DNA from: a virus
IMG/VR virus record: IMGVR_UViG_3300045988_163332
Location: 1-37,329 of that record
Length of the DNA: 37,329 bases
Reading direction: 5' to 3' (one strand)
Shown: in pieces, positions 3,036 to 37,329 of the stretch
Position numbering within the stretch: position 1 is the stretch's first letter
Layout of the letters: every line of letters starts with the position of its first letter
Made by a program: the position numbers and the translations under genes
The notes under the pieces: model-generated
What the model was told of the DNA's origin: nothing
What the model saw: the letters and a program-made list of their open reading frames with translations, nothing else
Database searches by the model: none

Positions 3036-3914
3036 CTAATCTGTTATTATTAAAGTCCAACCATTAATTATTAAACTTCCACAAGTTAAACCAGAGTTAG
3101 TAACTATTGCTCCTAATACTGTTAGATTTTGTGTAATAGTTCCACCAGATGTTGGAAGTTTTGTATTATCAGCTATTGTAATATTGGCACTACCATTAAA
3201 ACTAACTCCGTTGATAGTTCTAGCAGTTTGCAATTTTGTAGCAGTAGCAGAGTTTCCTATACAAACATCAGCACTATCAGCAGTTGTAGCACTCTTTGCT
3301 TTATCTTCTTTACCTAATTTATTATCTAATAAATTATTAGTTTCAGTTTTAGTATATATATCTGGTTTATTTATTAGTTTTTCATAATCAGTAGTTCCAG
3401 GTTGACCGCTTTGTCCTGGTATCCCTTGTTGACCTCTAGGGGCAGTAAAATCATATGTGCTACCATTAGTTAAAGTCACAGTATAAACATTTCCACCATC
3501 TTCATTAGTATTCTTAAATGTTATACTTTTTACTCCTACTCCATCAGCTCCTTTAGGACCTTGAATACCTTGCTCTCCAGTATCTCCCTTAGGTCCTTGA
3601 GGACCAGTATTTCCAGTTATACCTTGTTCCCCTTTATCTCCCTTAGGTCCTTGAATACCTTGAGGACCTTGGGGACCTTGTGGTCCAGTATCTCCCTTAT
3701 CTCCTTTAGGACCTTGAATACCTTGCTCTCCAGTATCTCCTTTAGGACCTTGAGGACCTTGTATTCCTTGCTCTCCTTTTGCACCAGGTAAACCTTGAAT
3801 ACCTTGTTCCCCTTGTATTCCTTGTTCTCCTTTAGGACCTTGAGGTCCGATATCTCCTTGTTCTCCTTTAGGACCTTGAGGACCTACAACATTACCTATA
3901 ATTAATTTTGGCAT
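3036..3914 (-). CDS. Collagen-like repeat protein, a second tail fibre or fibre subunit.
   Basis: Residues 11..125 are continuous Gly-X-Y triplets (nt about 3540..3884), mostly GPQ, GPK, GEQ and GIQ. The C-terminal part is globular and rich in Thr, Asn and Gly. Confidence 0.6.
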
Positions 3915-3927
3915 AATTAAAACCTCC

Positions 3928-5307
3928 TTATTCTAAAATTTCTAATACCAAATTCCCATCTTCATCTATTGAAAAATTTGGTTGAGTATCATTCTCGTTA
4001 TAATATACAACTAAGTTTCCATCTTCTATTTGGAATATGTACTGACTATTTATAGGAGTGATTACAGCAGTTCCATTATCTCCTTTATCTCCCTTATCTC
4101 CTTTAGGACCTTGTATTCCTTGAGGACCTTGGGGTCCGATATCTCCCTGCTCTCCCTTAGGTCCTTGTTCTCCTTGTATTCCTTGAATGCCTTGTTCGCC
4201 TTTTAGTCCTTGAAGTCCTCTTTCTCCTTGAATACCTTGTTCCCCTTGTATTCCTTGAATACCTTGAGGACCTGTTATTCCTTGAGGACCTTGAGGTCCA
4301 ACTTCTCCTTGTATTCCTTGCTCTCCTTGAATACCTTGAGGTCCATTTTCCCCTCTTTCTCCTTGGTCTCCTTTATCTCCTTTGAATCCTCTTTCTCCTC
4401 TTTCCCCTTTCGGTCCTTCTGGTCCATCATTGCCTTGAATACCTTGAGGACCTCTTCGTGCTAATAATTCTCCTATAATTTCTCCGTCTTCACGGTAGAC
4501 TGTATAGACGTTTCCTTCTGGTAATTCTTTATTAAAACCAACACTTGCTATTGAGTACCCTCTTTCTCCTTTTAAATCTTGCATATGATAGTCTATATAA
4601 TCTTGGATTTCTTTTTCTGCTTCTTCTATTTTTTCTTGTGTATATTTATCTAATTTTAAATAACTATCTGTTTTAAGATAATTATCAATAATTTCTTTTA
4701 AATCTTTTTCTAATTGAATAACTAGCTCTTTTACTCTATTATCCAAATCTTCAAGTAATATTTTTTTTGTATCTTCATAAATCTTATTGAGCAACTCTTG
4801 ATATTTCTCAAATAGTGTAGTTACAGGATAAGTAGCTATCCCATCATCTGACATATACCAGATAGAACCTTTTGGTAAATCTGGTAAACCTAATTGTTTG
4901 GGTATTCCACTATCTACAAATAATTGAGATTTTATAATTTCTTTTTCTGTTCCAAGTATTGCAGCTTTTATTTTAGTAAACATATTATTTAGATTTTCTG
5001 GTGTAATATCTCCTGTACTACTAAAAGTAAAATCTAAATCAAAATAAGGTTCAGACTTAACTATCTTAATATCTGTGTAATCATTCCATATGTCATCTGG
5101 GTAGTTAGTAAAATCAATGTTTCCAGCATTGTATGTGTAATAATCTTTAGGTATAAGGAATATAAAAGCTGTGCTAGTTATAGGATTTTGTTTTTTCCCA
5201 TAGACTTCACAACTTGTCATTAAGTCTGAAAAGCTAGTAGCATACTGTTGTCTATTCTCTTCTAACTTAAAATACTCTTTTTTAAAATTTAACATTTGCT
5301 TAAACAC
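3928..5307 (-). CDS. Tail fibre protein with an internal collagen-like triple-helix region.
   Basis: 459 aa. The N-terminal part is globular. Residues 286..412 are Gly-X-Y repeats (nt about 4072..4452), followed by a short C-terminal beta-rich tail. Confidence 0.6.
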
Positions 5308-5315
5308 CTCTTTTC

Positions 5316-6827
5316 TTAATAATAAGTTGTTAGTGGTCCATCAAAACTATCTTTTAGATATATGCTAGCAAATATCATAGCAGTTCTAAATGAATCTGCG
5401 TCATCAGAAGCTTTATCATTTGCGTCGTGGTCTGGTATATCTAAGTAACAGTTCATGGACTTGTTATATTTTTTGACATAGCCTCCTAATTGTATAACTC
5501 CTATGTTACACTCGTTATTATCTATCTCTACATTTTCAAACTCCTTTCTTATATAGTTGATTTGATTTATTAATGTAGTCATATCATTTTTAGCTAGCTC
5601 TGTCTTAGATAGAGTTCTTACATCACTAAAATAATTTAATCTTATGTAGTCACTTCTTTTTGAAGTTGCACTCCATTCCTCGACATCTCCATCATGTGGT
5701 AGTACCATAGTAGGCTGCATATAGTACCCATTATCTTTGCACCATTTTTTTATATATTGGCAGCAGTGGTCTGGTCCTTGTCCAGTAACTCTATAATGTT
5801 TTATGAATCTAATTCTATTATTGTGAGGGTTCTTTTGAAAAAACCATAATACTGTATGGTCCCTTTTTCCTATATCCCAAGCAACATATAAAGGTTGTTG
5901 TGTCCAGAAATGCCCTGTGTATATTTGAGTATATCTTCTACTTACACTATCCAATAACTCTTCATACCTACCATAAAACTTTATCCTTTCATCTTCATAA
6001 GCTTTTTTTAGTTGTTCTCCATACCAAGCACCAACTAGATGAGTATTGATTTTACATTCCCACTCTTGAGCGTATGAATCGGGGTCCATAGTAAGAGCTT
6101 GTTTTCTAAGTTCTTTATCATTTATTACCCTCTCCCCTTTATAGTTCAAGGAATCTTTTCCAGATTGAATATCTACATACCACATATCTTTAATTTCTTT
6201 ATTTTCTGGTTTACTTAGGATAGTGAAGTAATCTATAAAAAGTTTAGTAAACCAATTATATTTACCCCTTGGTGTAGAGATAAATATTACAAAACCAAAG
6301 TCTGTGTTATTGATAACCATATCAACTGCAGGTTTCATATATTGATAGAACTTTTCTTTTATAAGTGCTGCCTCTGTATAAATAACTCCTCTAGCTCCTA
6401 CCCCTACACTTGCGTCTGGGTTATCTCCTCCACGAAAGAAGATTTTTGCTCCGTTAAATAAAGTTACACTCCAATCTGATTTATTAACTTTAGGTCCTCT
6501 TGGATTTGCTAGTATTTCATCTGGTATAAGATTTTCAAGTAAAGGTAACCCGTTTAATGTCTTCCCATCTACAACTATCTCCTTTACCTGTCTAAAATAT
6601 GGTGCATAGATATAGTAGTTTCCTGGGTGTTGAATAGCTGCTAGTATCATAATGAGTAGTGAAATAAAGTCCTTTCCATATCTTCTATGAGCCATTAGTG
6701 CAAAATACTTTTTCTTATTTTCCAAGACATTGTCCAGAAGTTCTTTCTGTCCTTTGTGTAGATATTTAATAACTTTTTTATAACTGATGGTTACTCTTCT
6801 TTTTGCTGCTCTTCCTAAAAAATTCAA
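5316..6827 (-). CDS. terL: Terminase large subunit (ATPase plus RNaseH-like nuclease).
   Basis: N-terminal deviant Walker A (AHRRYGKDF, nt about 6669..6680). A Walker B-like block follows ([12 protein letters not shown]). Nuclease motifs in the C-terminal half include [21 protein letters not shown] and [13 protein letters not shown]. Its location, separated from the small subunit gene, is unusual. Confidence 0.6.
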
Positions 6828-6852
6828 AACTCCACCTCCTTACCTGTTTGAT

Positions 6853-6889
6853 AAAATAAAAAAAGGACAACCCTTTTAGGTTGTCCTTT
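6853..6889 (-). terminator. Rho-independent terminator (minus orientation) between the giant virion gene and terL.
   Basis: Stem aaaggacaacc / ggttgtccttt with loop ctttta. On the minus-strand RNA it is followed by a U-run (plus-strand A-run 6855..6864). Confidence 0.55.
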
Positions 6890-6905
6890 GATTTTTCTGT
6901 AAATG

Positions 6906-6932
6906 GAAAAAGGCAACTCTAAAAGGTTGCCT
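6906..6932 (-). terminator. Second hairpin with a U-rich tail, in tandem with 6853..6889.
   Basis: Stem aggcaac / gttgcct with loop tctaaaag. A short A-run sits upstream on the plus strand, which is a U-run for minus-strand RNA. Confidence 0.4.
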
Positions 6933-7217
6933 GATTTTCTTAAAATTATTATATCATTAAATACTAAAAAAGTCTATAAAAAGAAAATGGCTGGTATAGT
7001 TGCAGCTATACCAGCGATGAACATACTAAGTCTTTCGTTCTTCTTAGTAATTAAATTATAACAAAAATAACTAGAAAGTTCAAGATATTTTTGTTATAAT
7101 AAGTCTAGCCCACCAAGAAAGGGGGTGAACATCATTAAGTCTTTCGTTCTAAGACTAATAATACTGGTTATTCTGTTTTTCTTAGTAAACAGAGTTGCAT
7201 TATAATTAGTCAAAAAA

Positions 7218-7246
7218 GGGGAGTGTTGCAGCACTCCTCCTTTTTT
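7218..7246. terminator. Bidirectional hairpin terminator just downstream of the stop of the 1633-aa gene.
   Basis: Stem ggagtg / cactcc with loop ttgcag. T6 on the plus strand (7241..7246) and T5 on the minus strand. Confidence 0.55.
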
Positions 7247-14781: not shown

Positions 14782-16578
14782 TTATCCTATTTCTGCAAAT
14801 ATTCCTACTATTTCAATTTTCTCATTATTGAGTTGCTCTATAACTAATTCCTCTTTTCCAATGTTGGCCATGTCTATGTAGTGAATTTTTTCATAAAAAT
14901 TATCTGTGTTTTCTCCAAAGCCTACTGATTTAGTTTGATTATTTATTTTTAAGTTATAATTTCCATAACACAAAATCTTACAATTTTTAAATCTTGCTTT
15001 CATTAAAAATTCTGGAATTGGCATTTGGTAGTTTTGTGACATAGTTGTTTTTGGTAGTTTTAACTTTAAAGGCTCTACTTCTGTTTCTGAATAAGTATAT
15101 ATATCTATATTTTCATTATTAACATTGAAGATATAGAGTTTATCATCTATATTAAGATATTCATTTATTCCAGGCAATTTAGGTACTCTAGTCCAACATA
15201 ATATATTTTCTGAATAATTATAGCTTAATGCTCTTCCACCACTTACTGTATCTACTCCTATAATGTTGTTTTTACCAATTTTATGAAAGTAAATATCATT
15301 GATGTTATCCATTAAGTGTCCAGAATATAGTGTTACTTCCTGCACTACATAAGCACTATCTGCCCCTACGTCTTGTATTTGATAGATTCTATTTGAGCTA
15401 TCAACATAGTATATTGCGTCGTCTGCCTCTGTCCAATACCCAAGCCCTTTAGGTCTTGGTAGTTTTTGGTCGTACAGTGCTGATGTTTCAGTAGTTAGTC
15501 CCTCATTTAATTGTGTGGAATAAATTCCTCTATCTGTTATTACTATCAAGGATTTATAAGCTATAAACTCTTTAACAGTATTAACTTCATTACCAGTAAC
15601 AAAGGTAGTAAATCCATCATTATCATCTGTTGATTGTCTAAAGTTAGTAGAGTCATATACCCTACTTGACACTATCGCTGATGGGTTACCTGCAACATTC
15701 CCAAATATAACTCTTCCTTTATACTCTGCCACTACTGCTGGATAACCACCATTGAATAAAGATTCAGAGAAAGTTATATCCAGGATATTTATTTTTCTTT
15801 CAGCTTCTGGAGTTGATGAGGTAGGAATATCTATTCCAGTTGCTGGTGCTGTAACTTGTGTAGTAGTTATCTTTTGTTTTCCATCTCTATTCTCTATTTT
15901 ATTGATTCTAAATTCTCCAGCCATATAGGAAATAGTTCCCTCTTTTAATTTGTCCAGGAATGTAGGTTTAAATACAGGACTTGAGATAGTAGATTCAAAG
16001 ACAACACTTGCTCCAGATTGATACCATTGAAATACTTGTTTTTCTTCATCTGTATATTGATATTGAGTTTCCACTCTTTTTACTGGAGGATTTACTATAT
16101 TTTCCCAATACTCTACTACATCAAACTCTTGAGTATCTTCCGTAACTCTTATCATTTCTGGTTTTTTATTAGCTACACAAGTTATAACACTATTTTGGAA
16201 TTGTGCTATACTTAGATTCTCAATCTCTTCATCTGTGTAATTTACTTCTATTTCCTTTATAACTTCAAAGTTATCTTCTCTTAATATAATTACTTTTAAT
16301 TCAGTAAATAAAAAAAGATACCCACTAAGCGAGGTATCTTTCTTTTGAATTTTATATTTAAAAATCTTGAAAGCATTTATAATAGTTTTGGTTGTAACTG
16401 CTAGAATAGTAGCAACTTTTTTTAATGCTGGGAAATTAGTTATTCCTGCTGAAGAGGTTATAAGTCCATTTTCTAAATAGGCTAATCCTCTGTTTGGTAT
16501 ATCTGTATCTACCCTAAAACATAGTGGTGGGTCTATCTCCCCTAAAGAGAACCTCCCCTTTTTTTCATAATATTTCAT
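14782..16578 (-). CDS. Virion structural protein (598 aa), in the position of a tail tubular protein B.
   Basis: Long ORF following the 167-aa gene. Assignment rests on synteny only. Confidence 0.4.
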   Translation of the reverse strand: MKYYEKKGRFSLGEIDPPLCFRVDTDIPNRGLAYLENGLITSSAGITNFPALKKVATILAVTTKTIINAFKIFKYKIQKKDTSLSGYLFLFTELKVIILREDNFEVIKEIEVNYTDEEIENLSIAQFQNSVITCVANKKPEMIRVTEDTQEFDVVEYWENIVNPPVKRVETQYQYTDEEKQVFQWYQSGASVVFESTISSPVFKPTFLDKLKEGTISYMAGEFRINKIENRDGKQKITTTQVTAPATGIDIPTSSTPEAERKINILDITFSESLFNGGYPAVVAEYKGRVIFGNVAGNPSAIVSSRVYDSTNFRQSTDDNDGFTTFVTGNEVNTVKEFIAYKSLIVITDRGIYSTQLNEGLTTETSALYDQKLPRPKGLGYWTEADDAIYYVDSSNRIYQIQDVGADSAYVVQEVTLYSGHLMDNINDIYFHKIGKNNIIGVDTVSGGRALSYNYSENILCWTRVPKLPGINEYLNIDDKLYIFNVNNENIDIYTYSETEVEPLKLKLPKTTMSQNYQMPIPEFLMKARFKNCKILCYGNYNLKINNQTKSVGFGENTDNFYEKIHYIDMANIGKEELVIEQLNNEKIEIVGIFAEIG

Positions 16579-16587
16579 TGTTGCCTC

Positions 16588-17091
16588 CTATCTTAAATCC
16601 TCTATATTAATTATTGGAGGATTGTCATGTATAAATTTATTTTGCTCTGCTAAGAAAAGTTCATATAATCTACTTAATTCTCCAGCTTTAGAAAGTGGAG
16701 CTGCCATCATAATTGCAAGTGAAATACTAGCAAGTCTTGTATATTTCTCATCTATTTCTTCTGGGTCTATATTTTTCAAATATTTAAATAAAAAATTATT
16801 TTTTGAACTGATTAATTTATCCCTATAAGCCTCCACACCACTTGTTAATGATTTAATATACCCATCTGGTTTTAAGTAAATTATCTTCCCAAGCATATTT
16901 TGTACATCAGCTTTTCTTAGTACCACTTCATCTATATTAATTCCATAATTTTCATTTTGTAACATATCATTTATCATCATCATATAATAGTTATCTCCAA
17001 CCTTATAAGCTGATGATGTTTCCTGGTCTGCCTCATCATAAGGAAAGCCAAGTTCTAACATAGCTGCTCTAATTACTTTGTGTTTTTCCAA
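16588..17091 (-). CDS. Virion structural protein (167 aa), in the position of a tail tubular protein A.
   Basis: ORF with an RBS. Assignment rests on synteny only. Confidence 0.4.
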   Translation of the reverse strand: MEKHKVIRAAMLELGFPYDEADQETSSAYKVGDNYYMMMINDMLQNENYGINIDEVVLRKADVQNMLGKIIYLKPDGYIKSLTSGVEAYRDKLISSKNNFLFKYLKNIDPEEIDEKYTRLASISLAIMMAAPLSKAGELSRLYELFLAEQNKFIHDNPPIINIEDLR

Positions 17092-17266
17092 TTATCCTGT
17101 TACCTCCTTCTATAAATTTTTTCATTACTTTTAGTTGCTCTGGAGTATTTGCTAATTCAACTCCAATTTTTCCTACAACTAAAAAGAAAGTTCTTGCTTT
17201 GATATATTTGTTTTTTAATAAAAATCTCATAAATTTAAAAAATATTATAAATAATTTACCTTTCAT
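17069..17266 (-). CDS. Small hypothetical protein (65 aa) that overlaps the recombinase stop.
   Basis: Good RBS: ggagg, 8-nt spacer, then ATG. Its start overlaps the recombinase stop codon. Confidence 0.35.
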   Translation of the reverse strand: MKGKLFIIFFKFMRFLLKNKYIKARTFFLVVGKIGVELANTPEQLKVMKKFIEGGNRIIGKTQSN

Positions 17267-17954
17267 TTTCCTGTGCCTCCTCTAGTATAATATTTTTCTT
17301 ATACTTGTAATATGTATTCTTAGTTATCCCTAGCAGTGTAAAGACTTCTATATCTTTAAGATTTCCTCCAAAATCTTTAGCTAGTTTTTTAATTTTCTCT
17401 CTCATCTCCTTTTCTTTCTTGGTAGTATAAGTATCTCCTTGTTTTCTACCTAATATAGTTCCTTTAGCTTTAGTAACTCTTAGTCCCTCTTTTGTCCTTT
17501 CTCTAAGGTCTAATACTTCCTTTTCAGCTTGGTCAAATGCTATTTTAATTTGTTCTTGAGCTAATATCTTCAATACTTCATTGGTTGCGTCTATGTATAT
17601 ATCAGCTATTTTATTTCCTGTTGAATCTATTTTATTCTCTAAAGCTTTTTTATAAAGGGCTGTATTGATATATCCCTCTTTTAAAAATATAAGTTCAATA
17701 CCTCTTTCTACAAAATTAAAATATTCTTTTATTCCCTCTTCTGCATTTCTACTCATTCTACTAACAGAATCAAATATAATTGTATCTCCAGGTTTAACTA
17801 TTTTTTTTAGCTTACTCCATTCTTTTCTATCTGTTGTAGTTCCTGTATATGCTTCTTGAAATACTTTAGCAGTTGGATATATCTTTATGATATTTTCCAC
17901 CTGTCTTAAAATATTTTGTTTTTTTGTAGATACTCTGCAATAACCGTATATCAT
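17256..17954 (-). CDS. Small serine recombinase (resolvase or invertase family) with a C-terminal HTH.
   Basis: The N-terminal block YGYCRVSTKKQ contains the catalytic Ser motif of serine recombinases. 232 aa, with a C-terminal helix-turn-helix (LLGITKNTYYKY). Confidence 0.8.
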   Translation of the reverse strand: MIYGYCRVSTKKQNILRQVENIIKIYPTAKVFQEAYTGTTTDRKEWSKLKKIVKPGDTIIFDSVSRMSRNAEEGIKEYFNFVERGIELIFLKEGYINTALYKKALENKIDSTGNKIADIYIDATNEVLKILAQEQIKIAFDQAEKEVLDLRERTKEGLRVTKAKGTILGRKQGDTYTTKKEKEMREKIKKLAKDFGGNLKDIEVFTLLGITKNTYYKYKKNIILEEAQENER

Positions 17955-21768: not shown

Positions 21769-21984
21769 TTATGAGTTTTCGCCCTCTTGCCAATCTTCCG
21801 CTAAGCAATCATTGACACTTGGTACCCATGTACTTTTAGTTCCGTTTACATTTTTTATAATAAAGTGAGAATTTAATTCTTCTGTTGCTGGAATTAAGCA
21901 TACATACATTCCTTTTCCATTCCAACCTTTACGTGATACTATTCCACCGTGTTTTAAAAGTTCTAAAGCTTCTCCAAAATTCAT
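21769..21984 (-). CDS. Small protein (71 aa) resembling the DUF2829 family. This is the fold of Tad2 Thoeris anti-defence sponges.
   Basis: The N-terminal pattern MNFGEALELLKHGGIVSRKGWNGKGMYV matches the remembered DUF2829 signature F.EAl..lk.Gk.v.R.gWng. Recalled from memory, not searched. Confidence 0.4.
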   Translation of the reverse strand: MNFGEALELLKHGGIVSRKGWNGKGMYVCLIPATEELNSHFIIKNVNGTKSTWVPSVNDCLAEDWQEGENS

Positions 21985-21996
21985 ATTTATTCCTCC

Positions 21997-22464
21997 TTAT
22001 TTTCTGGTACAATCTTCTACCGCTTGGTCGTAGTCTCCTGATGTTGAGCATGATGTATCTTCTGTTTTTTCTATCTTTTCCATCTTTGACTTAAACTTAT
22101 CAATACCTATTCTTTCTAGCAATACAGAATAATATCTAATCATAAGGTCTCTTTGAATAGCTAGTAATTGTCTTTGATATTCATCTGTATATTTTTTCTC
22201 TTCCATTTCTTTTGATAAGAAAGTTGAAAGCTTATCTATTTTAATCTCTAGTTCTTGTGCTTCCTCTTCCATTCTTTCTATATGATTTTTTGGTCTTGTC
22301 TCTATACAACTAGGTTCTAGTATTTCCATAGCCCCAAGCTCTTCAATCTCTTTTTTTAATTCTTGCCAAGCAACAAGACCACTTAAATATCCAGCTTCAC
22401 ATTCAAATCCTACCCCCTCTATATCTTGGATAAGTTTTTTCATTTTTTCATATTTACCACTCAT
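21997..22464 (-). CDS. Acidic, coiled-coil-rich hypothetical protein (155 aa).
   Basis: ORF with RBS aggagg, 9-nt spacer, then ATG. Confidence 0.45.
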   Translation of the reverse strand: MSGKYEKMKKLIQDIEGVGFECEAGYLSGLVAWQELKKEIEELGAMEILEPSCIETRPKNHIERMEEEAQELEIKIDKLSTFLSKEMEEKKYTDEYQRQLLAIQRDLMIRYYSVLLERIGIDKFKSKMEKIEKTEDTSCSTSGDYDQAVEDCTRK

Positions 22465-22804: not shown

Positions 22805-24067
22805 CTATTCTGATTTTTTAGCTGCTTTTGTAGTTGTAGTAGTTGTTGCTGGTGCTTCTTGTGTTTCAGTAACTGCTGCTTGTTTGTTAGCTGCTCTTAA
22901 TCTTTCTAGTTCTAACTCTTTTTCTACTCTCTCCATTCTCATTTTTTCAATCTCTTTTTCTTGCTCTAGTTGTTCATTATTTGCTAATGACATTACTGAC
23001 ATTTTTTCTGTTTCTATTGAAGCTGCTGCTGCTCCTGTTGTTCTTTTATATTCAAAAATGAATACTCCCTCTGGATTTAATAATTCTGTTGAGTTATATA
23101 CTTCAACATCTAATAAATATGCTTTTTTATCAGCTATATAGTTAGCTTCTGGTGTTACTGATACATCTTTATTATCTTGACCGAAACTTCTTTCGACCAT
23201 AACTAGAAAATATCCTACCTCTTCTGAACCTAAAGGATATAAAGTTTTGTCAAATTGGAATAATCTTTCTACATGTCCACCCATCAACATAGATAATGGT
23301 TGTCCTGTTTTTCTTGTTTCCCCTTCTCCAAAATCTTTACTTGAGAATCTTTCAGCATTTGCAAGTTCTGTATTACCTTCAATTCCAGAAACTATCGCTA
23401 TTCTTAAACCTTGATTTGACGCCGCCTCTTGTGCTTGTAACATCATTTTTCTAAATAATTTTATATTTTCTGGAGTGTCAAATTCTTTTGTTTTATCTCC
23501 AAAAAATTGACTATCTGGTATCACTAAATCAAAAGTTTTATTGTCGCTACCTGTAACTGTTCTTTTTTTATTAGTTATACAATCTTTGAAAAGTTCAGCT
23601 ACTCTTATAGCACATCTTCCATATGTTGCTGCCACTTGAGCGTCTATTATTGTTGATTTTTCATCTAGTTGAGAACGGTTAAAATCTCTTCTCTTAACAT
23701 ATACAGGGCATTCCATTCCTGTTGGTATAACTTTAATACTTCTTAAAAAAGTTCCTGTATCTTGTCCTTTTACTTCTGCTGGTGTATAGTTAGGTCCTGA
23801 TATAGCTTGTTTGTCATCTATATCCCTAGATTCTAATCTTCCAGATACATAGAATAAAGAGTAAGCTTCATTTGTTGAAGCTGATTTTTCAAACCAACCT
23901 TCAAGTGGCATTTTCTTAGTTGTGTTTAAGGCTCTCTTTACACTATTAGCGTATTTAGCTTGTTCTCCTGCTGAAAGGTTTACGTTTCCGTATTCATATC
24001 CACCTTCTCCAGCAAATAACTGGATATTTAATCCTGTGCTTCCTAATAAAGTTTTTTCATTTCTCAA
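22805..24067 (-). CDS. Major capsid protein with an N-terminal L27-like Prp cleavage motif.
   Basis: 420 aa. TTG start after RBS aaggagga. N-terminus MRNEKTLLGSTGLNIQLFAGEGG. Follows the portal and scaffold genes. The C-terminus has a coiled-coil region and an ATTTTTT tail. Confidence 0.6.
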   Translation of the reverse strand: MRNEKTLLGSTGLNIQLFAGEGGYEYGNVNLSAGEQAKYANSVKRALNTTKKMPLEGWFEKSASTNEAYSLFYVSGRLESRDIDDKQAISGPNYTPAEVKGQDTGTFLRSIKVIPTGMECPVYVKRRDFNRSQLDEKSTIIDAQVAATYGRCAIRVAELFKDCITNKKRTVTGSDNKTFDLVIPDSQFFGDKTKEFDTPENIKLFRKMMLQAQEAASNQGLRIAIVSGIEGNTELANAERFSSKDFGEGETRKTGQPLSMLMGGHVERLFQFDKTLYPLGSEEVGYFLVMVERSFGQDNKDVSVTPEANYIADKKAYLLDVEVYNSTELLNPEGVFIFEYKRTTGAAAASIETEKMSVMSLANNEQLEQEKEIEKMRMERVEKELELERLRAANKQAAVTETQEAPATTTTTTKAAKKSE

Positions 24068-24085
24068 GTATTCCTCCTTAAAATC

Positions 24086-24748
24086 TTATTTTATAAAATC
24101 CCAATAAAATGGGTCATCTTGCTTTTTAGCTTGTGCATATTCTCTTAATTTATTCATTAAACCTTTATCATTTGTATCTAAAGCTTGATTATAAGCCTCA
24201 ATGAATCCATCATGTGTATAATCTGTTGAAAGCTGTGTTTTTCCAACTCCTACTACACTTCCTGTACTTCCTGCTTTCATTTCCATGTATTCCTTTAGGA
24301 TTTGAGCTCCTATTGCATTTTCTGCCATAGCTCTATATACTATCTGTCTATCTGTGTCTTTCTCTGCTCCTATGAAGTTATTTATTGCTTCCATACTTGC
24401 ATTAAGTTCTGGAGTGAAAGCTGCTTTTTGTTCTGCTAGATAAGCTTTTCTATCATCTAGTCTTGATTTAATGTACTCTGGAGTGTAACCTTTTTCTTGA
24501 GCCTCTGTGATATATGGTGCTATATCTCCAATCTCTTGGTAATCTTCTGCCTTTATTCCTTCCCAAGTTAATGGCTCTACTTTAGGTTCTGCCCCTGCCC
24601 TATTATCTCCACTTGGTTGTGGTGGTTCTCCTCCAGATCCTGTATTTATTGTTGGCTCTGGATTTGGTGTAGGTTCTCCTCCTGTATCTCCTCCCTCTGT
24701 TCCTCCAAATAATTGGATATTAAATTTAAATCTTTCTTTATCAGTCAT
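24086..24748 (-). CDS. Scaffolding-like head protein with an N-terminal Prp-type motif.
   Basis: 220 aa and acidic. N-terminus MTDKERFKFNIQLFGGTEGG. Lies between the portal and capsid genes. Confidence 0.5.
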   Translation of the reverse strand: MTDKERFKFNIQLFGGTEGGDTGGEPTPNPEPTINTGSGGEPPQPSGDNRAGAEPKVEPLTWEGIKAEDYQEIGDIAPYITEAQEKGYTPEYIKSRLDDRKAYLAEQKAAFTPELNASMEAINNFIGAEKDTDRQIVYRAMAENAIGAQILKEYMEMKAGSTGSVVGVGKTQLSTDYTHDGFIEAYNQALDTNDKGLMNKLREYAQAKKQDDPFYWDFIK

Positions 24749-24962
24749 TTTCTTCTTTTACCTCCTTCGTAAATATCTCCATGTATAAACTGTTTACTCC
24801 AGTTATTTCCTTCACTTTCCCTACTGTATCAACTCCTTTGTCGTTCATGATAGAAACTCTATTGAGTTCGAGCATTAAGTATAGTTCGATTAGTCTTTTT
24901 AAAGCTCTATCATCTCTATATCTTCTTTTTAACTCTTCGTACTCTTTTCTCTCTTCTGTCAT
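24741..24962 (-). CDS. Small hypothetical protein (73 aa).
   Basis: ORF with overlapping stop and start codons. Confidence 0.4.
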   Translation of the reverse strand: MTEERKEYEELKRRYRDDRALKRLIELYLMLELNRVSIMNDKGVDTVGKVKEITGVNSLYMEIFTKEVKEEND

Positions 24963-26467
24963 TGTTCTATCATTCCCCCTTGTTGTGCAGCTATCATAGC
25001 GTTCATTTCCTCAACTTGTTTTTCTGTTTCCTCTCCAGATTTCCACTCTTTATTATTGATTCTAAATCTTTTTTGTTGAGCGTCTATATATTCAGCTTGG
25101 TTCATATTAGCTGCTGCAACCTGTGGTCCTAGAGTGCTTGCTATATTTTGGAAATACAACATATTTCTTTCAAGGTCATCTTGGTCTTGTGCTATTGTTA
25201 GTGCATTGTAGAATCTTATCTTTAATCTTGGATTTTCCTGTAAAGCTTTAATTTTAGATATATCTATAATGCTAATCTTTTGTAGACATTGGAAAACTTT
25301 TATAACTATCTCTCTTAAAAGTTCCCTTTGCATTAGAGCATAGGTTGGCTCTATTTGCTTAGCGAACTCTGTTGTTACTAGTTGTGTTGTTGTAGCAGTA
25401 ACATTCTTTAGCTGGTCTAAGTTTTGAGCCGTTTCAAATATATTGATATAGAATATATCTCTCAAAAGTTCCTTGTACATGTCTAGGTTAAAGAACTCCA
25501 TATTAGCATTTTCTCCCCTGTTGAATGGTATTATCTGATTTTGTACTGGCGACATTCCCATCATAGATATAGCTCCTGGTTCATCTATTCTTGAGTTCTG
25601 AATATATTTAGCCTCTCCATACCCCAGATAACTTGGTCTAGCTTGTTTCTTAGCAATACGTCTGATGTTGGCTTTAACTTCTTTTAGTCCTTCAATTTCC
25701 ATTATTGCTTTAACACAAGGTCCTATACCATATGGACTATCTCCAATACTTTCATATCTTGCAACTATCCACGGATTGTAAGTGTCTATCCTATAATCTA
25801 AAACGTCTGCAAACTCATTTGAAGTAGATACTACATAGTGAAACATTTTAGTTTCTTGGTCGTATATTGTACCTTCCCACAACTCTATCTCATCATCTTG
25901 TGACATTCTTTGAACCTTTTCAGAGTTATAAGCATTTTCTCCGAAAAGATTAAGAATCTGATGTTTTCTCACTTTACCTGCATTGTAGAATGTATCTCCA
26001 GGTTGTTTACCTCTTCTTTTAGTAAGATAAACATTTATATTGGGTACTGGTTGAAATTCCACAGGATTTGCAATTTTACCAGTAAATCTAACTTTGAATA
26101 CTGCTGTTCCTATTAGATAGTCCATAAGAATTACAGCTTTCTCTGTTTCAAAGTTAGAATTTTCTTGAATCTCATCAAATACTATTTCTGTTATGCGTCT
26201 AAAGATAATCTTGTCATCTCTTGATATATCTTCAAACCTTGGTGTTTCTATCCAAGCCCAGATATGATTACTATTAAGTATCATAGCTGACAACTTGTTA
26301 GCTAACTTAGTAGCATATGCTAGTCCTGTACTGTCTACACCATTTAAATTAATTTCTCTTGGTAGAAAATGTGCTCTAGCTTTCAAATACCAAGCTAGTA
26401 TTACATTTCTTTCCTGTTGTGCCTCCTGGAATCTACTACGAAATAGATTTTTAATTCTATCTTCCAC
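24959..26467 (-). CDS. Portal protein (502 aa), assigned by size and position.
   Basis: Long ORF immediately upstream of the scaffold and capsid genes. No family-level motif verified. Confidence 0.5.
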   Translation of the reverse strand: MEDRIKNLFRSRFQEAQQERNVILAWYLKARAHFLPREINLNGVDSTGLAYATKLANKLSAMILNSNHIWAWIETPRFEDISRDDKIIFRRITEIVFDEIQENSNFETEKAVILMDYLIGTAVFKVRFTGKIANPVEFQPVPNINVYLTKRRGKQPGDTFYNAGKVRKHQILNLFGENAYNSEKVQRMSQDDEIELWEGTIYDQETKMFHYVVSTSNEFADVLDYRIDTYNPWIVARYESIGDSPYGIGPCVKAIMEIEGLKEVKANIRRIAKKQARPSYLGYGEAKYIQNSRIDEPGAISMMGMSPVQNQIIPFNRGENANMEFFNLDMYKELLRDIFYINIFETAQNLDQLKNVTATTTQLVTTEFAKQIEPTYALMQRELLREIVIKVFQCLQKISIIDISKIKALQENPRLKIRFYNALTIAQDQDDLERNMLYFQNIASTLGPQVAAANMNQAEYIDAQQKRFRINNKEWKSGEETEKQVEEMNAMIAAQQGGMIEQ

Positions 26468-26476
26468 AGTATCTCC

Positions 26477-26725
26477 TTATCCTATTGTCTGGGTACTACT
26501 CTTCTTAAGTAGTCCTAGATTACCTTGTCTTAGGCTCTCCTGGAATTGTATTGCAGTTTTTCTTTGTTTGTCTTTTTCGGCTTGCTGCTTTTTAGCCTCT
26601 GTCTCTCTTTGCTTTTTGAGTTCTTCTTCCATTCTTTTTTGCTGCTTTTTAGTACCACTAAAGTCAGTAGCTCCTAAAGTAATGGTATCAACAAGTCCTC
26701 CTAATACATTTCCACCACCAAACAA
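26477..26725 (-). CDS. Small Lys/Glu/Gln-rich head-associated protein. The real start is probably upstream, near 26749, at a non-ATG codon.
   Basis: The ORF track begins at the TTG inside NIQLFGG. The frame stays open upstream and encodes I-K-F-K-P-N-I-Q-L-F-G-G, which parallels the scaffold N-terminus. An RBS ggaggagag sits 5 nt before the ATA at 26747..26749. Confidence 0.45.
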   Translation of the reverse strand: MFGGGNVLGGLVDTITLGATDFSGTKKQQKRMEEELKKQRETEAKKQQAEKDKQRKTAIQFQESLRQGNLGLLKKSSTQTIG

Positions 26726-26750
26726 TTGGATATTTGGTTTAAATTTTATA

Positions 26751-27230
26751 TTATCTCTCCTCCTTTTCCCATGCTTCTACATCATAGAATTTATCAAGGA
26801 TTTTTCTTGCTTTTCTAAAAGTCCCAACTTTTCTAAAGTTATATCTTTTAAAAAACTTCATAGCCAGTTTATATGCTGGACTTTCTGGAACTATATTTAA
26901 TTCTATTTTTTTATAAAGCTTATCAAGCATGCTACAAAATTTAGCGAAATCATCTAAGAACTCTTTTCTCTCTGTGAGGTTATCTCCTAGAAAAATAAAG
27001 TCTAGTGATATTATTTTGTCATGTGGTATGTTATAGATACAGCCCATATAACCTACTATGTGTCCATCATGGATAGATAACATCATCAGTTCATCTAGCC
27101 CTTTTATATTTAGGTCATCTAATGAACCTGTGAAAAACTTATATTTTTCAACGTTTGCTTGTTGCTCCTCTTCTAGTATTTCTTTTAGCACTAGAAAAGC
27201 TTTATCTTCTCTTGATACTCCCTCAAGCAT
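26751..27230 (-). CDS. Hypothetical protein (159 aa) with a weak acetyltransferase-like C-terminus.
   Basis: ORF between the terminase small subunit gene and the head genes. Confidence 0.4.
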   Translation of the reverse strand: MLEGVSREDKAFLVLKEILEEEQQANVEKYKFFTGSLDDLNIKGLDELMMLSIHDGHIVGYMGCIYNIPHDKIISLDFIFLGDNLTERKEFLDDFAKFCSMLDKLYKKIELNIVPESPAYKLAMKFFKRYNFRKVGTFRKARKILDKFYDVEAWEKEER

Positions 27231-27719
27231 TTACACAACCCCCTCAACTTGTAAGAATTTCTTAGTCTTGTCATCTCTTTGCTCTTGCTTGTCCTCTGTC
27301 TTTTCTCCTAGCTCTAATGAAACCTCAATGTTATTAGTTCCACCTTGCTTGTCCCAGCCTGCCAGAGTTTCTATTCTTTGCGACAGTTGAACTGCTGCTT
27401 TAAAATCTACAAATTTACCTGTTTTTTCTAGTAGTCCTTTGTCTGTAAGTCTTATAATCTTTGTATCTTCCAGTCCTGCTGCCTGTTCAAATAGTCCTTG
27501 CATTATTGCTAAGTGTCCCATTTTATCTCTTCCAAGCATAAAGTCCACCATTTCCAAGTGTTCCTCTATTTGCTTGTTGATTTTCTTGCTACTCATTAGC
27601 TTGTGCATTAGCTTTAGGTCGAATGGGATTCCAGCAGCTTGCATGGCTTTAAGTCCATTTTTGCAAACTAGAAATGATGATATGAACTTCTCTTCTTGCT
27701 CTTTGGTTATTCCTGCCAT
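27231..27719 (-). CDS. terS: Terminase small subunit.
   Basis: 162 aa. N-terminal block NGLKAMQAAGIP resembles the terminase small subunit HTH signature ...A.kaAGys. It sits upstream of the head genes. Confidence 0.5.
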   Translation of the reverse strand: MAGITKEQEEKFISSFLVCKNGLKAMQAAGIPFDLKLMHKLMSSKKINKQIEEHLEMVDFMLGRDKMGHLAIMQGLFEQAAGLEDTKIIRLTDKGLLEKTGKFVDFKAAVQLSQRIETLAGWDKQGGTNNIEVSLELGEKTEDKQEQRDDKTKKFLQVEGVV

Positions 27720-28795
27720 TCTAACTCTGCCCCCTCTTCTCCTAGTCTTATTTTTATACTAACTTTAGCTATTTTTTTGAGTAGTTTTTCCAATCTTTCA
27801 AAGTTCTTGGAATAAGACTTTTTAATCTCTCCAAGTTTTTCTAACTCTTCCAGCTTTTCAATAACTTTCTTTTTCTGGTATTGAATAGCTCTTTTTTTAA
27901 TACTCATATTATTTTCAGTCATTACAACATCAAGTAATCTAATATCAAATATTAAATACTCTTTCATCATTAGTCTTTCTGCTAGCCCCTTAGTTCCTGG
28001 AACAACTATCTTTTTCAATTCTTTGATATCATAGTTTAACTCTTTGACTATCTGCTCTGTAAGTATTGCTCCTATTGTTTTTCTAAGTGCTGCAGCTAGA
28101 TTATCTTTAGTTATTCCACCTAGATGATTTAAATTATAGGTCTTGAGGTGTGGAGGTCTTAGCGTCAACTCTCCTCTTAATGCTTGTCTTTTCTTTGCTA
28201 CCTCTTTTCCTGTATCTTCCATCTCTTTTCTTTTGGAATAGATTTTAAAATAGCTAGTTGTTTCTCTGGACTTTTTCCCTCTCTCTTTGAAGTCTACTCC
28301 ATCAAGTTCCAATCTTTTTTTATTGTCTGTATCAAAATACATTCTTGAAGTTGGAAAGATATTTTTATATGCTCTATATATCAAATTTAAAACTTGATAA
28401 TAATTTCTGATGTTCTCAACTTCTAATTGGTTTGATAAGTCCAGACTAACTACTCTAATATCTTCTCCTTTTACAAGTTCTCCTGTTATGCTTCTAAGTA
28501 TTAAGATTAATTCTTGATGTACTTGAGCAATAACTTTTTGATTTGTTACTAGCTTGTAATTGTCATTGTTATCATATCTGGAATAACTGAAAGAGATTAA
28601 TATATTTTTTTTCTCATCAATGCTGATGTAGTTTAACCAGTTATATTTTTTTAATCTGGTATTTTTAAATATTATTTTTTTATTTTCATTTCGTGCCTCT
28701 TCTTCCAGTAGTATGCTAGTTGATTGAATTATGAAGTCTAGTTCATTCAACTTGGCTGGATAACTTATACTTGCAGTATCTACAATCCAACCCAC
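27707..28795 (-). CDS. Hypothetical protein (362 aa), first gene of the late block.
   Basis: ORF with a GTG start after a G-rich SD. C-terminal coiled-coil. Confidence 0.5.
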   Translation of the reverse strand: MGWIVDTASISYPAKLNELDFIIQSTSILLEEEARNENKKIIFKNTRLKKYNWLNYISIDEKKNILISFSYSRYDNNDNYKLVTNQKVIAQVHQELILILRSITGELVKGEDIRVVSLDLSNQLEVENIRNYYQVLNLIYRAYKNIFPTSRMYFDTDNKKRLELDGVDFKERGKKSRETTSYFKIYSKRKEMEDTGKEVAKKRQALRGELTLRPPHLKTYNLNHLGGITKDNLAAALRKTIGAILTEQIVKELNYDIKELKKIVVPGTKGLAERLMMKEYLIFDIRLLDVVMTENNMSIKKRAIQYQKKKVIEKLEELEKLGEIKKSYSKNFERLEKLLKKIAKVSIKIRLGEEGAELEWQE

Positions 28796-30181: not shown

Positions 30182-30832
30182 CTAATAATATCTCATAACA
30201 CTTCTTAATCTTCCAATGACTCTAAGCTCTGATTGGTCCATTATTTTAATTTTAGGGTAATATGGATTTATACTTTTTAAAAAAATATCTCCCTCATCTT
30301 GTACGAATTTTTTTAAATATACTGCTCCTTGATAATTGACAACTATAATTTTATTTAAAATACAGTCTATGTTTTTAGTGTCAACTATAACTATATCTCC
30401 ATCTTTTATCTCTGGTTCCATAGAATCTCCAGCAACTCTTATAGCTATATTTCCTGTTTTTGCTAAATCTTCTGGCACTTCTATATATTCCAGAGTTCCA
30501 TAATCATTAAAACAACCATATCCAGCTGAAGCTTGAATATCTGGATAAAATGGGATCTTTTTTTGATTAACATTTTTTATTTGCTTTAATTGTAAAAACT
30601 CTTCTTTTAAACTCTCTGGTGCCTTTTCTAAATCTACTAATTTTAATAACTGAGCATAACTTTCTTTATCCATTATTTGTCCTAATTGCTCAATCGTTGT
30701 TGCTGGAATCTTTCTTTTTCCATTTTCAATATTTGTAATAAAAACTTGACTACATAGCAATTTATCGGCTAAATCGACTGCTCTTAAATTATTTTTCTTT
30801 CTAAATTCCTTAATAAATTCTCCTGCTGTCAT
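30182..30832 (-). CDS. CI-type repressor: N-terminal XRE HTH fused to a LexA/S24 autopeptidase domain.
   Basis: HTH block LRAVDLADKLLCSQVFITNIENGKR. S24 motifs GDSMEP and a K further downstream (VAGDSMEPEIKDGDIVIVD). Confidence 0.8.
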   Translation of the reverse strand: MTAGEFIKEFRKKNNLRAVDLADKLLCSQVFITNIENGKRKIPATTIEQLGQIMDKESYAQLLKLVDLEKAPESLKEEFLQLKQIKNVNQKKIPFYPDIQASAGYGCFNDYGTLEYIEVPEDLAKTGNIAIRVAGDSMEPEIKDGDIVIVDTKNIDCILNKIIVVNYQGAVYLKKFVQDEGDIFLKSINPYYPKIKIMDQSELRVIGRLRSVMRYY

Positions 30833-34386: not shown

Positions 34387-35544
34387 ATGATAAACTTTTC
34401 TATAAAAGGAGGGGTAAGCTTGGGAAAGGAAAACTACAATTTGATACACCACAAAGATTTTCATAAACTGCAACTGCAGAATTACAATGTAAAAGAAAGA
34501 GCAATATTTTTAACTCTATGTTTGAAACTTATGGAACAGGAAGATGATGTTGTTAGTTTAAAAATATCAGAACTAACAAAAATATCCAATTATTCTCCAA
34601 GAAAAAAAGGGGATAATATAATACTTTTTCTTAAAGAATTAAATGACAAATTAAAAACTATGGAAATAATACAAACTAAAGAAAATGGAGATTTTAAAAG
34701 TATAACATTGTTTCCAACTTTTGAAGTCAACCAAGATTTTGGAGAGGTAAAAATAAGAGTAAATCCAGATTATAAATATCTTTTAAATCATTTGCAACCA
34801 CCATTTACAATACAAGATGTAGTTGAATACTCTGGACTTAAAAGTGGATATTCTCAACTGATGTATAGCATTTTAAAAAATTGGAATAAAGCTAAGAAGA
34901 TTAGTTTTAAATTAGATGACTTTAAAAAAGAGATGGGAATACCTGAAAATTATAGAATTTGTGATATAGATAGCAGGGTTATAGCTCCAATAACATCAGA
35001 GCTTTCAGTTTTATTTCATGGGCTAAAGGTTGAAAAAATAAAAAATGGAAGGTCGGTAGCTGGGTTTGAGTTTACCTGGAAAGATAACAAGGTTGATGAT
35101 GTAGTAGTTGATGAAGAGGAAATAGAGATTTCAGAAGAGTTGCTATCAGCTATTGAGAAAGCAGAGAAAAACAGATTTATAAAACCTTTCTTGACTGATG
35201 ATAATATAATAAAACTTTTAGATAAATTTAGCCAAGAGCAATTAGAAAAAGGATTGAAAGCTGCTTATGATTTAATTAAAACAGAATTTACAAGTCTTAA
35301 TTATTTGATAAAAGTTATTGAAGATAGTTTGAATAAACCTAAAAGAAAAATAGTTATAAGAAGAACTAAGGAAGCAGAAAAAATAAAAGAAGTTGAAGAG
35401 CCAGTAGTCAAGAAAAAAACAACTCCACTAACTAATGAAGAATATCAAAATGCTATGAAGATATATCAAGCTACTGGAGAAGATTTTGGTTATGAACCAG
35501 AGGAAGTAAGAGAGTATATAAAAAAATATAAGGATTTAATATAG
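34387..35544 (+). CDS. rep: Plasmid-type replication initiator (iteron-binding Rep). Start may be the ATG at 34387 or the TTG at 34430.
   Basis: 385 aa, immediately downstream of the iterons. Strong RBS aaggaggggtaagc before the TTG at 34430. Followed by parA. Confidence 0.55.
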   Translation: MINFSIKGGVSLGKENYNLIHHKDFHKLQLQNYNVKERAIFLTLCLKLMEQEDDVVSLKISELTKISNYSPRKKGDNIILFLKELNDKLKTMEIIQTKENGDFKSITLFPTFEVNQDFGEVKIRVNPDYKYLLNHLQPPFTIQDVVEYSGLKSGYSQLMYSILKNWNKAKKISFKLDDFKKEMGIPENYRICDIDSRVIAPITSELSVLFHGLKVEKIKNGRSVAGFEFTWKDNKVDDVVVDEEEIEISEELLSAIEKAEKNRFIKPFLTDDNIIKLLDKFSQEQLEKGLKAAYDLIKTEFTSLNYLIKVIEDSLNKPKRKIVIRRTKEAEKIKEVEEPVVKKKTTPLTNEEYQNAMKIYQATGEDFGYEPEEVREYIKKYKDLI

Positions 35545-35553
35545 GGGGGTAAA

Positions 35554-36312
35554 ATGAAAATAATATCATTTATAACAGAAAAAGGTGGCACTGGTAAGAC
35601 TACTGGTGCCAGAGAAGTTGCTGGGGTACTATCTCTAGTTCATAATAAAAAAGTTTTGCTTATTGATTGTGACTTTCAACAAAATCTAACTGAGAGTTTA
35701 ATAGAAGCAGACCAAGAAAAAAATATATTTAGAGCCATAAAAGAGAAAGATTTAAAAGGAAATATAATTCCTATTGAAAGAGATGGAAAACATATATTAG
35801 ATTTAATACCTGCAAGTCTTAATTTAAAGGACTTGGAATATAAAAAAGACAGTGTTGATATGGAAATGATTTACCTAGATTTAAAAAAAGGACTAGAGCA
35901 ACTCCAAGAATATGACTATATAATTATAGATTGTAGACCAGATATGAGAGCAATAGAAAGGGCTGTGTTAAAGTGCAGTAATTATGTTATCACTCCTGTT
36001 GAAGCTCATCTATTTAGTTTTAGAGGGTTTGAATTATTAGAGAACTTTATACAAGCTCTTAAAAAGGATTTAAACACTCCATTCATTCATTTTGGATATA
36101 TAAACAGGCTACAAAATGACAAAGAGATATTAGAAGCCACTGAAGATGTCAGAAGTTCTTTTGATAACATATTAGATACTCCTATAAGAGATAACCTTAA
36201 AATATTTAAAGCCTCACAGACAGGACATTTTATAATAGAATATAGTTCTACATCAAATGGGGCTAAGGATTTTAAAGCTCTTACAAAGGAGTTGTTGAAT
36301 AAATGGCAATAA
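35554..36312 (+). CDS. parA: ParA/Soj-type partition ATPase.
   Basis: Deviant Walker A KGGTGKTT near the N-terminus (MKIISFITEKGGTGKTTGA). 252 aa. Confidence 0.85.
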   Translation: MKIISFITEKGGTGKTTGAREVAGVLSLVHNKKVLLIDCDFQQNLTESLIEADQEKNIFRAIKEKDLKGNIIPIERDGKHILDLIPASLNLKDLEYKKDSVDMEMIYLDLKKGLEQLQEYDYIIIDCRPDMRAIERAVLKCSNYVITPVEAHLFSFRGFELLENFIQALKKDLNTPFIHFGYINRLQNDKEILEATEDVRSSFDNILDTPIRDNLKIFKASQTGHFIIEYSSTSNGAKDFKALTKELLNKWQ

Positions 36313-37225: not shown

Positions 37226-37250
37226 AGGAATTTTTCCTCTATTTTTTTTT
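37224..37250 (+). terminator. Rho-independent terminator abutting the start of the right terminal repeat.
   Basis: Stem agagg / cctct with loop aattttt, followed by T9. Confidence 0.6.
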
Positions 37251-37329
37251 AAAAAATCTCTTGACGTCCCAGTGGGATAGGGTTAATATTTTCTTAACTT
37301 GCAAGTGAAAAAATACTTGACGGTCTCAG
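37241..37329. repeat. Right copy of the 89-bp direct repeat. Contains a complete copy of the first left-end promoter.
   Basis: Identical to 1..89. It begins right after the hairpin terminator at 37224..37250. Confidence 0.9.

Follow-up and report, generated by a model that had tools for sequence, protein, structure and literature searches.

The DNA considered here is positions 1 to 37,329 of the IMG/VR virus record IMGVR_UViG_3300045988_163332, and this whole stretch of 37,329 nucleotides (nt) is referred to below as the window. Positions 22805–28795 of its minus strand form a head-morphogenesis operon that comprises, in the order of transcription, an open reading frame (ORF) of 362 amino acids (aa), a TerS-like gene, a GNAT-like gene, a small ORF, the portal gene, and ORFs of 73, 220, and 420 aa. 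The products of the small, the 220-aa, and the 420-aa ORFs, described below as a small basic protein, a putative scaffolding protein, and the major capsid protein, each carry near the N terminus the motif N-I-Q-L-F-(A/G)-G, which resembles the site at which the bacterial cysteine protease Prp removes the leader of ribosomal protein L27.

Head genes and their N-terminal leaders

A six-frame scan of the window with the pattern N[ILVM]Q[LFHMY]F[AGS] gave four matches, three of which lie in long reading frames, all on the minus strand; these are the three copies that an earlier note on this DNA had reported. Each reads N-I-Q-L-F-(A/G)-G in frame and lies within the first 20 residues of a head-module gene product, namely at 24028–24008 in the capsid ORF (22805–24067; residues 14–20), at 24721–24701 in the scaffold ORF (24086–24748; residues 10–16), and at 26734–26714 in the small-protein ORF (26477–26749; residues 6–12). 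The fourth match, NIQLFS at 34581 on the plus strand, sits in a stop-to-stop fragment of 20 codons and was set aside as noise. Given the amino-acid frequencies of the window, the number of matches to NIQLF[AG] expected by chance is 1.3e-3 in 12,400 residues and 1.2e-4 within N-termini, and the Poisson probability for three matches is approximately 3e-10. Since three copies were found where about 1e-3 would be expected, all of them at the N-termini of adjacent genes, the motif is not explained by chance. In two control sequences, the Fusobacterium nucleatum phage Funu1 and 30 kb of Funu2 (about 70 kb in all), no such motif was found near the start of a long ORF.

The 420-aa protein (22805–24067, minus strand) has no match in Pfam or PHROGs. 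A search of the PDB with its AlphaFold2 (AF2) model (pLDDT 73.5) using Foldseek gave HK97-fold shell proteins for all of the 50 top matches listed, chiefly phage capsids and encapsulins, with a probability of 1.00 and modest TM-scores of 0.3 to 0.6. Because the model matches HK97-fold capsids and encapsulins, we identify the protein as the major capsid protein, an identity that the earlier note had proposed and that is now shown by fold. The family is rare, with 26 representatives among 1.84e9 protein cluster representatives. Translation starts at a TTG codon 5 nt after AAGGAGG, and the first 18 residues (MRNEKTLLGSTGLNIQLF; 24014–24067, minus strand) form the leader, with the predicted Prp cut between F18 and A19 in the segment LNIQLFAG (24031–24008); the mature protein would thus consist of residues 19–420. 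In the AF2 model, residues 1–25 are disordered. Among homologues, LN[ILV]Q[LV]F is kept down to 31% identity and the residues before the motif vary freely, and more distant representatives have NIQLFA, NIQVFS, or NIQIFA or are leaderless. One leaderless homologue (P0230) begins MAGTKDVKLTAGEQARY, which aligns with the predicted mature N terminus AGEGG..LSAGEQAKY of the window protein (..NIQLF followed by AGEGGYEYGNVNLSAGEQAKY).

The capsid genes showed two further features. Residues ~345–420 of the window protein (22805–23035, minus strand) are an optional C-terminal extension, for which a long helix or coiled coil and then a T/K-rich tail are predicted; it is absent from homologues of 334–344 aa (P0026, P0028–P0030) and might serve as a built-in arm that decorates or cements the shell. 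In this group, the capsid genes have TTG or ATA starts right after a strong GGAGG, the ATA starts being found in three related loci (L011, L014, and L007). Gene callers shorten these head proteins, often at the Leu of the NIQLF motif, and such starts therefore pose an annotation problem, in that the truncated calls hide the leader.

The 220-aa protein (24086–24748, minus strand) has no family, fold, or PDB match in Pfam, PHROGs, or a structure search with its model. Its position between the portal and capsid genes, its pI of 4.6, and its AF2 model, in which a disordered linker rich in G, P, E, and T (residues 1–56) precedes an all-helical region (residues 61–220), suggest that it is the scaffold; what the earlier note had said of its N terminus holds, and its identity is an assignment from this context. 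The leader has 14 residues (MTDKERFKFNIQLF; 24707–24748, minus strand), the motif NIQLFGG spans 24721–24701, and the predicted cut between F14 and G15 would yield a mature protein of residues 15–220. All 12 of the homologues compared have N10, I11, Q12, L13, and F14, and in five distant loci (L007, L008, L010, L011, and L014), the motif of the scaffold reads NIQLFAE, NIQIFAE, or KIQLFAE.

The C-terminal ~45 aa of the scaffold occur in two types among the homologues, and in L009 the alternative type accompanies an alternative capsid that lacks the motif. The head module is thus a mosaic, as seen in L009 (4154–6009) and the proteins P0032, P0219, P0221, P0225, and P0226; the capsid of L009 has a different N-terminal two-thirds, without an L27-like leader, fused to the same C-terminal tail. 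Judging from these sequences, the C terminus of the scaffold and the capsid appear to have been exchanged together.

The small basic protein (26477–26749, minus strand; 90 aa from an ATA start, pI 10) is encoded directly upstream of the portal gene, and a homologue is found at the same position in all related loci. It has a weak match to phrog_26964, a family without known function, and its position suggests that it is a head protein. The earlier note had listed it as an 82-aa head protein with the motif; the motif is present and the head assignment is drawn from gene position, whereas the length is 82–83 aa only when counted from TTG 26725, as in ORF finders and public gene calls, and 90 aa when counted from ATA 26749, a gene boundary that the note had given and that we accept. 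The 10-residue leader, (M)KFKPNIQLF (26720–26749, minus strand; ATA at 26749–26747), has the length of the L27 leader of F. nucleatum, and the predicted cut between F10 and G11 would leave residues 11–90. This leader occurs only in the clade of the window, where it was gained. Leaderless homologues (A5) start with M-G-S.. in alignment with F10 and G11, that is, at the predicted mature Gly. Judged by the leaderless homologues of the capsid and of the small protein, the leader behaves as a detachable module. Gly is the mature N-terminal residue of the small protein in most homologues.

The L27 leader, Prp, and the probable host

The L27 proteins of Fusobacterium and Cetobacterium begin M..[LF]NIQLF, followed after the cut by A[HK]KK, and read MKFILNIQLFAHKK in Fusobacterium necrophorum and MLFTLNIQLFAKKK in Cetobacterium. 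The shared motif corresponds to P5–P1 of this leader in all three head proteins, which bears out the L27 likeness described earlier, and in the capsid the match extends over L-N-I-Q-L-F-A, that is, P6–P1' of F. necrophorum and Cetobacterium L27. The L27 of F. nucleatum (MQFLFNIQLF'AHKK) is alone in having NIQLF in a table of about 30 species; most of the others have NLQ(F/L)F (PMC9405229 Table 2). In a search with an L27-like query, the named sequences among the best 120 matches were all from Fusobacteriota. Where cluster members are named, those of the NIQLF type come from Fusobacterium and Cetobacterium species, and the named matches from Leptotrichiaceae read LNLQLF.

Bacteria of this type also have the protease. 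The gene order rplU–prp–rpmA, with a Peptidase_Prp gene (PF04327) directly upstream of rpmA, was found in two places, F. necrophorum GCA_022787675.1 and a contig with an L27 that falls into a cluster with Cetobacterium L27. The gene upstream of rpmA encodes 111 aa, and the GH...DIVCAA catalytic motif is present in both Prp proteins; PMC9405229 also lists FnPrp. Prp enzymes are species-selective, and their specificity is set by P1–P3 plus Asn at P5 (PMC9261936) and by a size-limited P1' (PMC9405229), the consensus substrate being (D/N)-(L/I)-Q-(F/L)-F followed by a small residue (PMC9405229). All of these determinants are present in the three leaders, which read N-I-Q-L-F-A in the capsid and N-I-Q-L-F-G in the scaffold and the small protein, with Ile at P4 and Leu at P2 as in Fusobacteriaceae L27 and with Gly in place of Ala at P1' in two of them; relatives of the scaffold have Ala at P1'. 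The predicted scissile bonds follow residues 18, 14, and 10, within the first ~10–20 residues of each protein, and the leaders of the capsid and the scaffold lie in regions that are disordered in the AF2 models.

The element that carries these genes looks like a phage-plasmid. An 89-bp terminal direct repeat (1–89 = 37241–37329) indicates a complete circular assembly, and a Rep3 initiator, a ParA-like ATPase, a small serine resolvase, and a CI/S24 repressor are encoded in the regions 34387–36312 (plus strand), 17256–17954 (minus strand), and 30182–30832 (minus strand); no integrase was detected in the window. Near-identical contigs of ~37.3 kb occur in many human gut metagenomes, and contigs with the capsid gene come from many samples, the QINJ12 assemblies among them. 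Searches of isolated phages and plasmids by megablast with 15 kb and 25 kb of the window, and of isolated phages by tblastn with the capsid, gave no match, and the portal found only distant marine podoviruses among isolated phages (23–24% identity).

As to the host, the Rep3 initiator (34387–35544) has its closest relatives on plasmids of Cetobacterium somerae (41%) and Fusobacterium varium (37%), and the GC content is 30%. The endolysin is a single-domain T5-type L-Ala-D-Glu peptidase, a type found in phages of Gram-negative bacteria, and is closest to enzymes of enterobacterial and Stenotrophomonas phages (46%), and the holin (PF05105) is closest to those of Clostridium phages (43% identity). 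This mixture of a Gram-negative-type endolysin and a Firmicute-like holin suits the diderm Fusobacteriota. The host is probably a member of the Fusobacteriaceae, and the clue to host range that the earlier note saw in the leaders agrees with the independent indications from Rep3, GC content, and lysis genes. A related head module with NIQIF leaders is present on L007 (JAHHTN010000092.1), a 6.6-kb contig with 31% GC in a "Faecalimonas sp." metagenome-assembled genome (MAG; Lachnospiraceae), for which the L27 leader would presumably be of the NLQFF type. In view of its low GC content and its NIQIF leaders, this contig was treated as a probable binning error and was not taken as evidence for the host.

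Predicted processing and alternative explanations

We think it likely, on the evidence of sequence comparison, that the window represents a complete ~37.3-kb temperate, probably plasmid-like, podovirus-type phage of gut Fusobacteriaceae, three precursors of which mimic L27 and would be cut by the Prp of the host. The capsid protein, the putative scaffold, and the small portal-adjacent protein would be made as precursors with leaders of 18, 14, and 10 residues ending in N-I-Q-L-F, and these leaders would copy the host L27 leader, which the cysteine protease Prp normally removes from pre-L27. Prp would recognize Asn at P5, Gln at P3, and the hydrophobic residues at P4, P2, and P1 and would cut after Phe and before a small residue, with AGEGG.. 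(capsid), GGTEGG.. (scaffold), and GGGNV.. (small protein) as the predicted new N-termini. The phage would then not have to encode a protease. The host assignment, the cleavage, and its timing are what we infer.

The precedent invoked in the earlier note, Staphylococcus phage 80alpha, is as stated there: the Prp of the host cleaves both the capsid and the scaffold of this phage between Phe and Ala of an L27-like site (PMC5744158). In 80alpha, as here, the capsid (gp47) and scaffold (gp46) proteins carry leaders, 13–14 aa long in that phage, with an L27-like end, which in 80alpha is N-L-Q-(F/H)-F before Ala (PMC5744158, PMC9405229); in both cases no protease is encoded by the phage, and the motif is that of the L27 leader of the phage's own host, which in the present case is a predicted one. 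The two systems differ in the host (diderm Fusobacteriota here, Bacillota there), in the site (N-I-Q-L-F here, with Gly at P1' in two proteins), and in the virion, the window encoding a T7-type portal and a podovirus-like structural module whereas 80alpha is a siphovirus. In sequence, the window capsid and scaffold are not homologous to their 80alpha counterparts; in addition, a third, small protein has a leader here, and cleavage is here a prediction. Phage 80alpha stays viable when its capsid is uncleavable or pre-cleaved and when its scaffold is uncleavable, and the one essential feature is that the scaffold is made with its leader (PMC5744158). Because the cut is dispensable there, the earlier statement that capsid maturation depends on host Prp was too strong, and we describe the three proteins as predicted Prp substrates. 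If 80alpha is a guide, having the leader, above all on the scaffold, may be more important for folding or assembly than having it cut off.

Further comparisons help to place the leaders. The capsid of phage 80 and the major tail protein of phi13, both from phages of Bacillota and likewise noted from their sequences only, show the L27-like motif as a portable tag on nonhomologous structural proteins (PMC5744158), which parallels the clade-specific gain of the leader by the small protein. In pre-L27 of Fusobacterium and Cetobacterium, the cut is followed by the basic sequence A-[HK]-K-K-G, whereas the phage proteins are acidic and Gly-rich there and, apart from the leader, are not homologous to L27. 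Prohead proteases (HK97 gp4/S78, lambda C/S49, ClpP-like S14, T4 gp21/U9, and CP-1 of clan CR) achieve the same outcome, the removal of an N-terminal segment from capsid and scaffold, but no such gene is detectable here, the segment has 10–18 aa and is not a delta domain, and the site mimics that of a substrate from the host. T7-like modules (gp8, gp9, and gp10) share with the window the PF12236 portal and the order portal, scaffold, capsid, tail-tube, large internal proteins, and fibers; unlike in T7, the capsid family is unrelated in sequence to gp10, and the phage is temperate and plasmid-like. The T7 capsid and scaffold proteins are not known to be proteolytically processed. The literature searched contained no report of this strategy for Fusobacterium phages.

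One alternative concerns the number of proteins with a leader. If the small-protein gene started at TTG 26725, K-F-K-P-N-I-Q upstream of it would be untranslated and only two proteins would carry the motif. TTG is a canonical start whereas ATA is very rare, the public calls of 82–83 aa use it, and the leaderless homologues begin near TTG 26725; even so, we hold this reading to be very unlikely. From the sole Shine-Dalgarno sequence, GGAGG, it is 9 nt to ATA 26749 but 33 nt to the TTG, and between an in-frame stop ten codons upstream of the ATA (26779–26777) and the motif there is no ATG, GTG, or TTG that could start the protein. The ATA lies 1 nt after the stop of the GNAT-like gene in the window (TAA-T-ATA, 26747–26753) and overlaps that stop in L011, L012, and L014 (ATAG), which indicates translational coupling by termination-reinitiation. 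Between the window and L010, the ten leader codons show three synonymous and no nonsynonymous changes. In L014, a stop two codons upstream of the conserved IGS leaves only ATA as a start, L011 and L012, which keep the ATA, likewise require it, and in relatives with a leaderless small protein the conserved sequence begins at an ATA preceded by GGAGG. An in-frame N-I-Q before L-F-G-G would also be improbable by chance. A nucleotide-level element near the three starts, such as a translational enhancer or an RNA or DNA site, or a chance repeat, deserves practically no credence as the source of the shared sequence. The three window copies are indeed alike as DNA (AATATCCA[AG]TT[AG]TTTG), but when the codons of 17 distinct motif copies, taken from the window plus 14 related loci, are compared, different synonymous codons are found at each position of the motif (AAT/AAC, ATC/ATT/ATA, CAA/CAG, TTA/TTG/CTA/CTT, and TTT/TTC), and N, Q, and F are essentially invariant. 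Since the relatives swap codons freely and keep the amino acids, selection acts on the peptide, and this synonymous pattern contradicts and excludes a nucleotide-level element. The distance from the start codon also differs among the three copies (5, 9, and 13 codons), no Rfam match was found, and the chance expectation given above speaks against a random repeat.

The other alternatives accept the leaders and differ in what becomes of them. That they are removed by an unrecognized phage protease or autocatalytically, the resemblance to L27 being convergent or incidental, seems highly improbable to us. More than half of the ORFs have no family assignment, which leaves room for such an enzyme, and relatives of Prp encoded by phages exist, the other member of MEROPS clan CR being described as the protease of bacteriophage CP-1 (PMC9405229, PMC9261936). 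However, a scan of every ORF of at least 70 aa with Pfam, PHROGs, or both gave no match to S49, S78, S14, U9, U35, or C108 (PF04327), and the two Fusobacteriaceae Prp proteins found only noise in the six frames of the window (best phmmer E 0.15, best tblastn E 1.5), so that the earlier remark that no prohead protease gene is to be seen agrees with these searches. The sole peptidase domain is the S24 domain of the CI-type repressor (30182–30832), the scaffold is predicted to be all helical, the sole gene at the usual position of a prohead protease, between portal and scaffold, encodes 73 aa and is too small for a protease, and the neighboring GNAT-like protein has no Cys or His conserved across 7 homologues. 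An identity of six or seven residues with host L27 would, moreover, be hard to explain otherwise. To our knowledge, T7-type head modules normally lack a maturation protease, and the missing gene is therefore not remarkable in itself. It is also unlikely that the leader is simply a binding or assembly signal, left uncut or with an irrelevant cut, that may bring in a chaperone, be it Prp or some other factor, or coordinate how scaffold and capsid fold; this idea overlaps with processing by Prp and does not exclude it. The behavior of the 80alpha mutants, with an essential scaffold leader and dispensable cleavage of capsid and scaffold (PMC5744158), agrees with it, as does Gly at P1' in two of the three proteins, a departure from L27. 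Yet the N-termini of leaderless homologues coincide exactly with the predicted scissile bond, which is what a removable add-on would lead one to expect, the catalytically relevant Phe at P1 and small residue at P1' are strictly kept, and Gly is within the size limit for P1' (PMC9405229). Lastly, the leaders could be more than trimming tags: abundant late capsid and scaffold precursors might act as decoys that occupy the essential Prp and block pre-L27 maturation and ribosome assembly; Prp might serve as an assembly chaperone or checkpoint for the T7-type head; or the GNAT-like enzyme might modify the N-terminal Gly exposed by Prp (in relatives, by removal of Met), an acyl- or acetyl-transfer role on the small protein being conceivable from the sequences. 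Only the gene arrangement speaks for these ideas, nothing in the data contradicts them, and we regard them as quite improbable.

Several observations weigh against the preferred explanation, processing of the three precursors by Prp in a Fusobacteriaceae host. The cleavage is predicted from sequence, and the P1' residue of the scaffold and the small protein is Gly, whereas nearly all L27 proteins examined and both 80alpha substrates have Ala; Gly, although small, is not described at this site for any Prp substrate. For the third protein an ATA start has to be assumed, and its membership in the virion is deduced from gene position. The recombinant capsid of L009 has no leader and the scaffold site of L012 is degenerate; hence, heads of this type do not strictly need the cut. 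Many ORFs lack an assigned function, so that a novel protease is possible. The L27 search was seeded with a query of the NIQLF type and cannot show that NIQLF is exclusive to Fusobacteriaceae. With regard to the host, the best ParA matches are on Bacteroidota plasmids (35% identity, uninformative for the host), the holin is Firmicute-like, the only match among species-representative genomes is the 6.6-kb contig in the "Faecalimonas" MAG, and the F. nucleatum phages Funu1 and Funu2 are without the motif.

If the three proteins are indeed Prp substrates, the sole documented phage reliance on host Prp, that of 80alpha in Staphylococcus, would be extended to another phylum and another virion architecture, which suggests that mimicry of L27 provides a general, portable tag and is more than a peculiarity of staphylococci. 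Prp and L27 leaders co-vary between taxa, and the variant carried by a phage could thus be used as a host-prediction marker for uncultured phages. Prp is pursued as an antibiotic target, and Prp inhibitors might also affect the maturation of such phages.

Other genes of the operon and the window

The portal gene (24959–26467, minus strand) is of the T7 gp8 type, with matches to PF12236 (Head-tail_con, E 5.5e-29) and phrog_332 (E 1.3e-38); the score against PF12236 is 101.4 bits, with a cutoff of 27, and residues 9–463 are covered. The 73-aa ORF between portal and scaffold (24741–24962, minus strand) has no family match in Pfam or PHROGs. Upstream of the small-protein gene, to which it is translationally coupled, lies the gene of the GNAT-like 159-aa protein (26751–27230, minus strand), with a match to PF13420 at E 0.044 and a "weak" match for the L010 homologue; it is kept between TerS and the small protein in all relatives. 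This ORF was also considered as a Prp-like protein owing to the stretch DGHIVGYMGC and was rejected, as His and Cys are not conserved and the weak matches are only to GNAT. The TerS-like ORF (27231–27719, minus strand) matches PF03592 with E 0.011.

The 362-aa protein (27707–28795, minus strand), the product of the first gene of the late operon, has the invariant motifs ISFSYSRY, YFKIYSKRKE, and ALRGELTL, which by eye resemble those of Rep_trans-type replication initiators; it has no Pfam match, and no PDB sequence match was found for it or for a 1633-aa internal protein encoded elsewhere in the window. The structural genes are arranged as in T7, with tail proteins at 16588–17091 and 14782–16578, large internal proteins, and TerL at 5316–6827. 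Between the gene of the 1633-aa internal protein and TerL lies a non-coding stretch of 417 bp (6828–7244) with direct repeats (TAAGTCTTTCGTTCT twice) and several hairpins, which may be a packaging or regulatory site. It has no Rfam match, and neither tRNA genes nor Rfam matches were found in the window.

The region between the capsid gene and the tail genes carries variable cargo. Directly downstream of the capsid gene (21769–22464, minus strand) are genes of the anti-defense type, Sequestin (PF21825) and Tad2-like (PF11195), assigned by precomputed Pfam labels on identical loci. The lysis cassette and the genes of two collagen-repeat proteins, which are probably tail fibers, lie at 526–1650 and 3036–5307 (minus strand); the cassette is of mixed ancestry.

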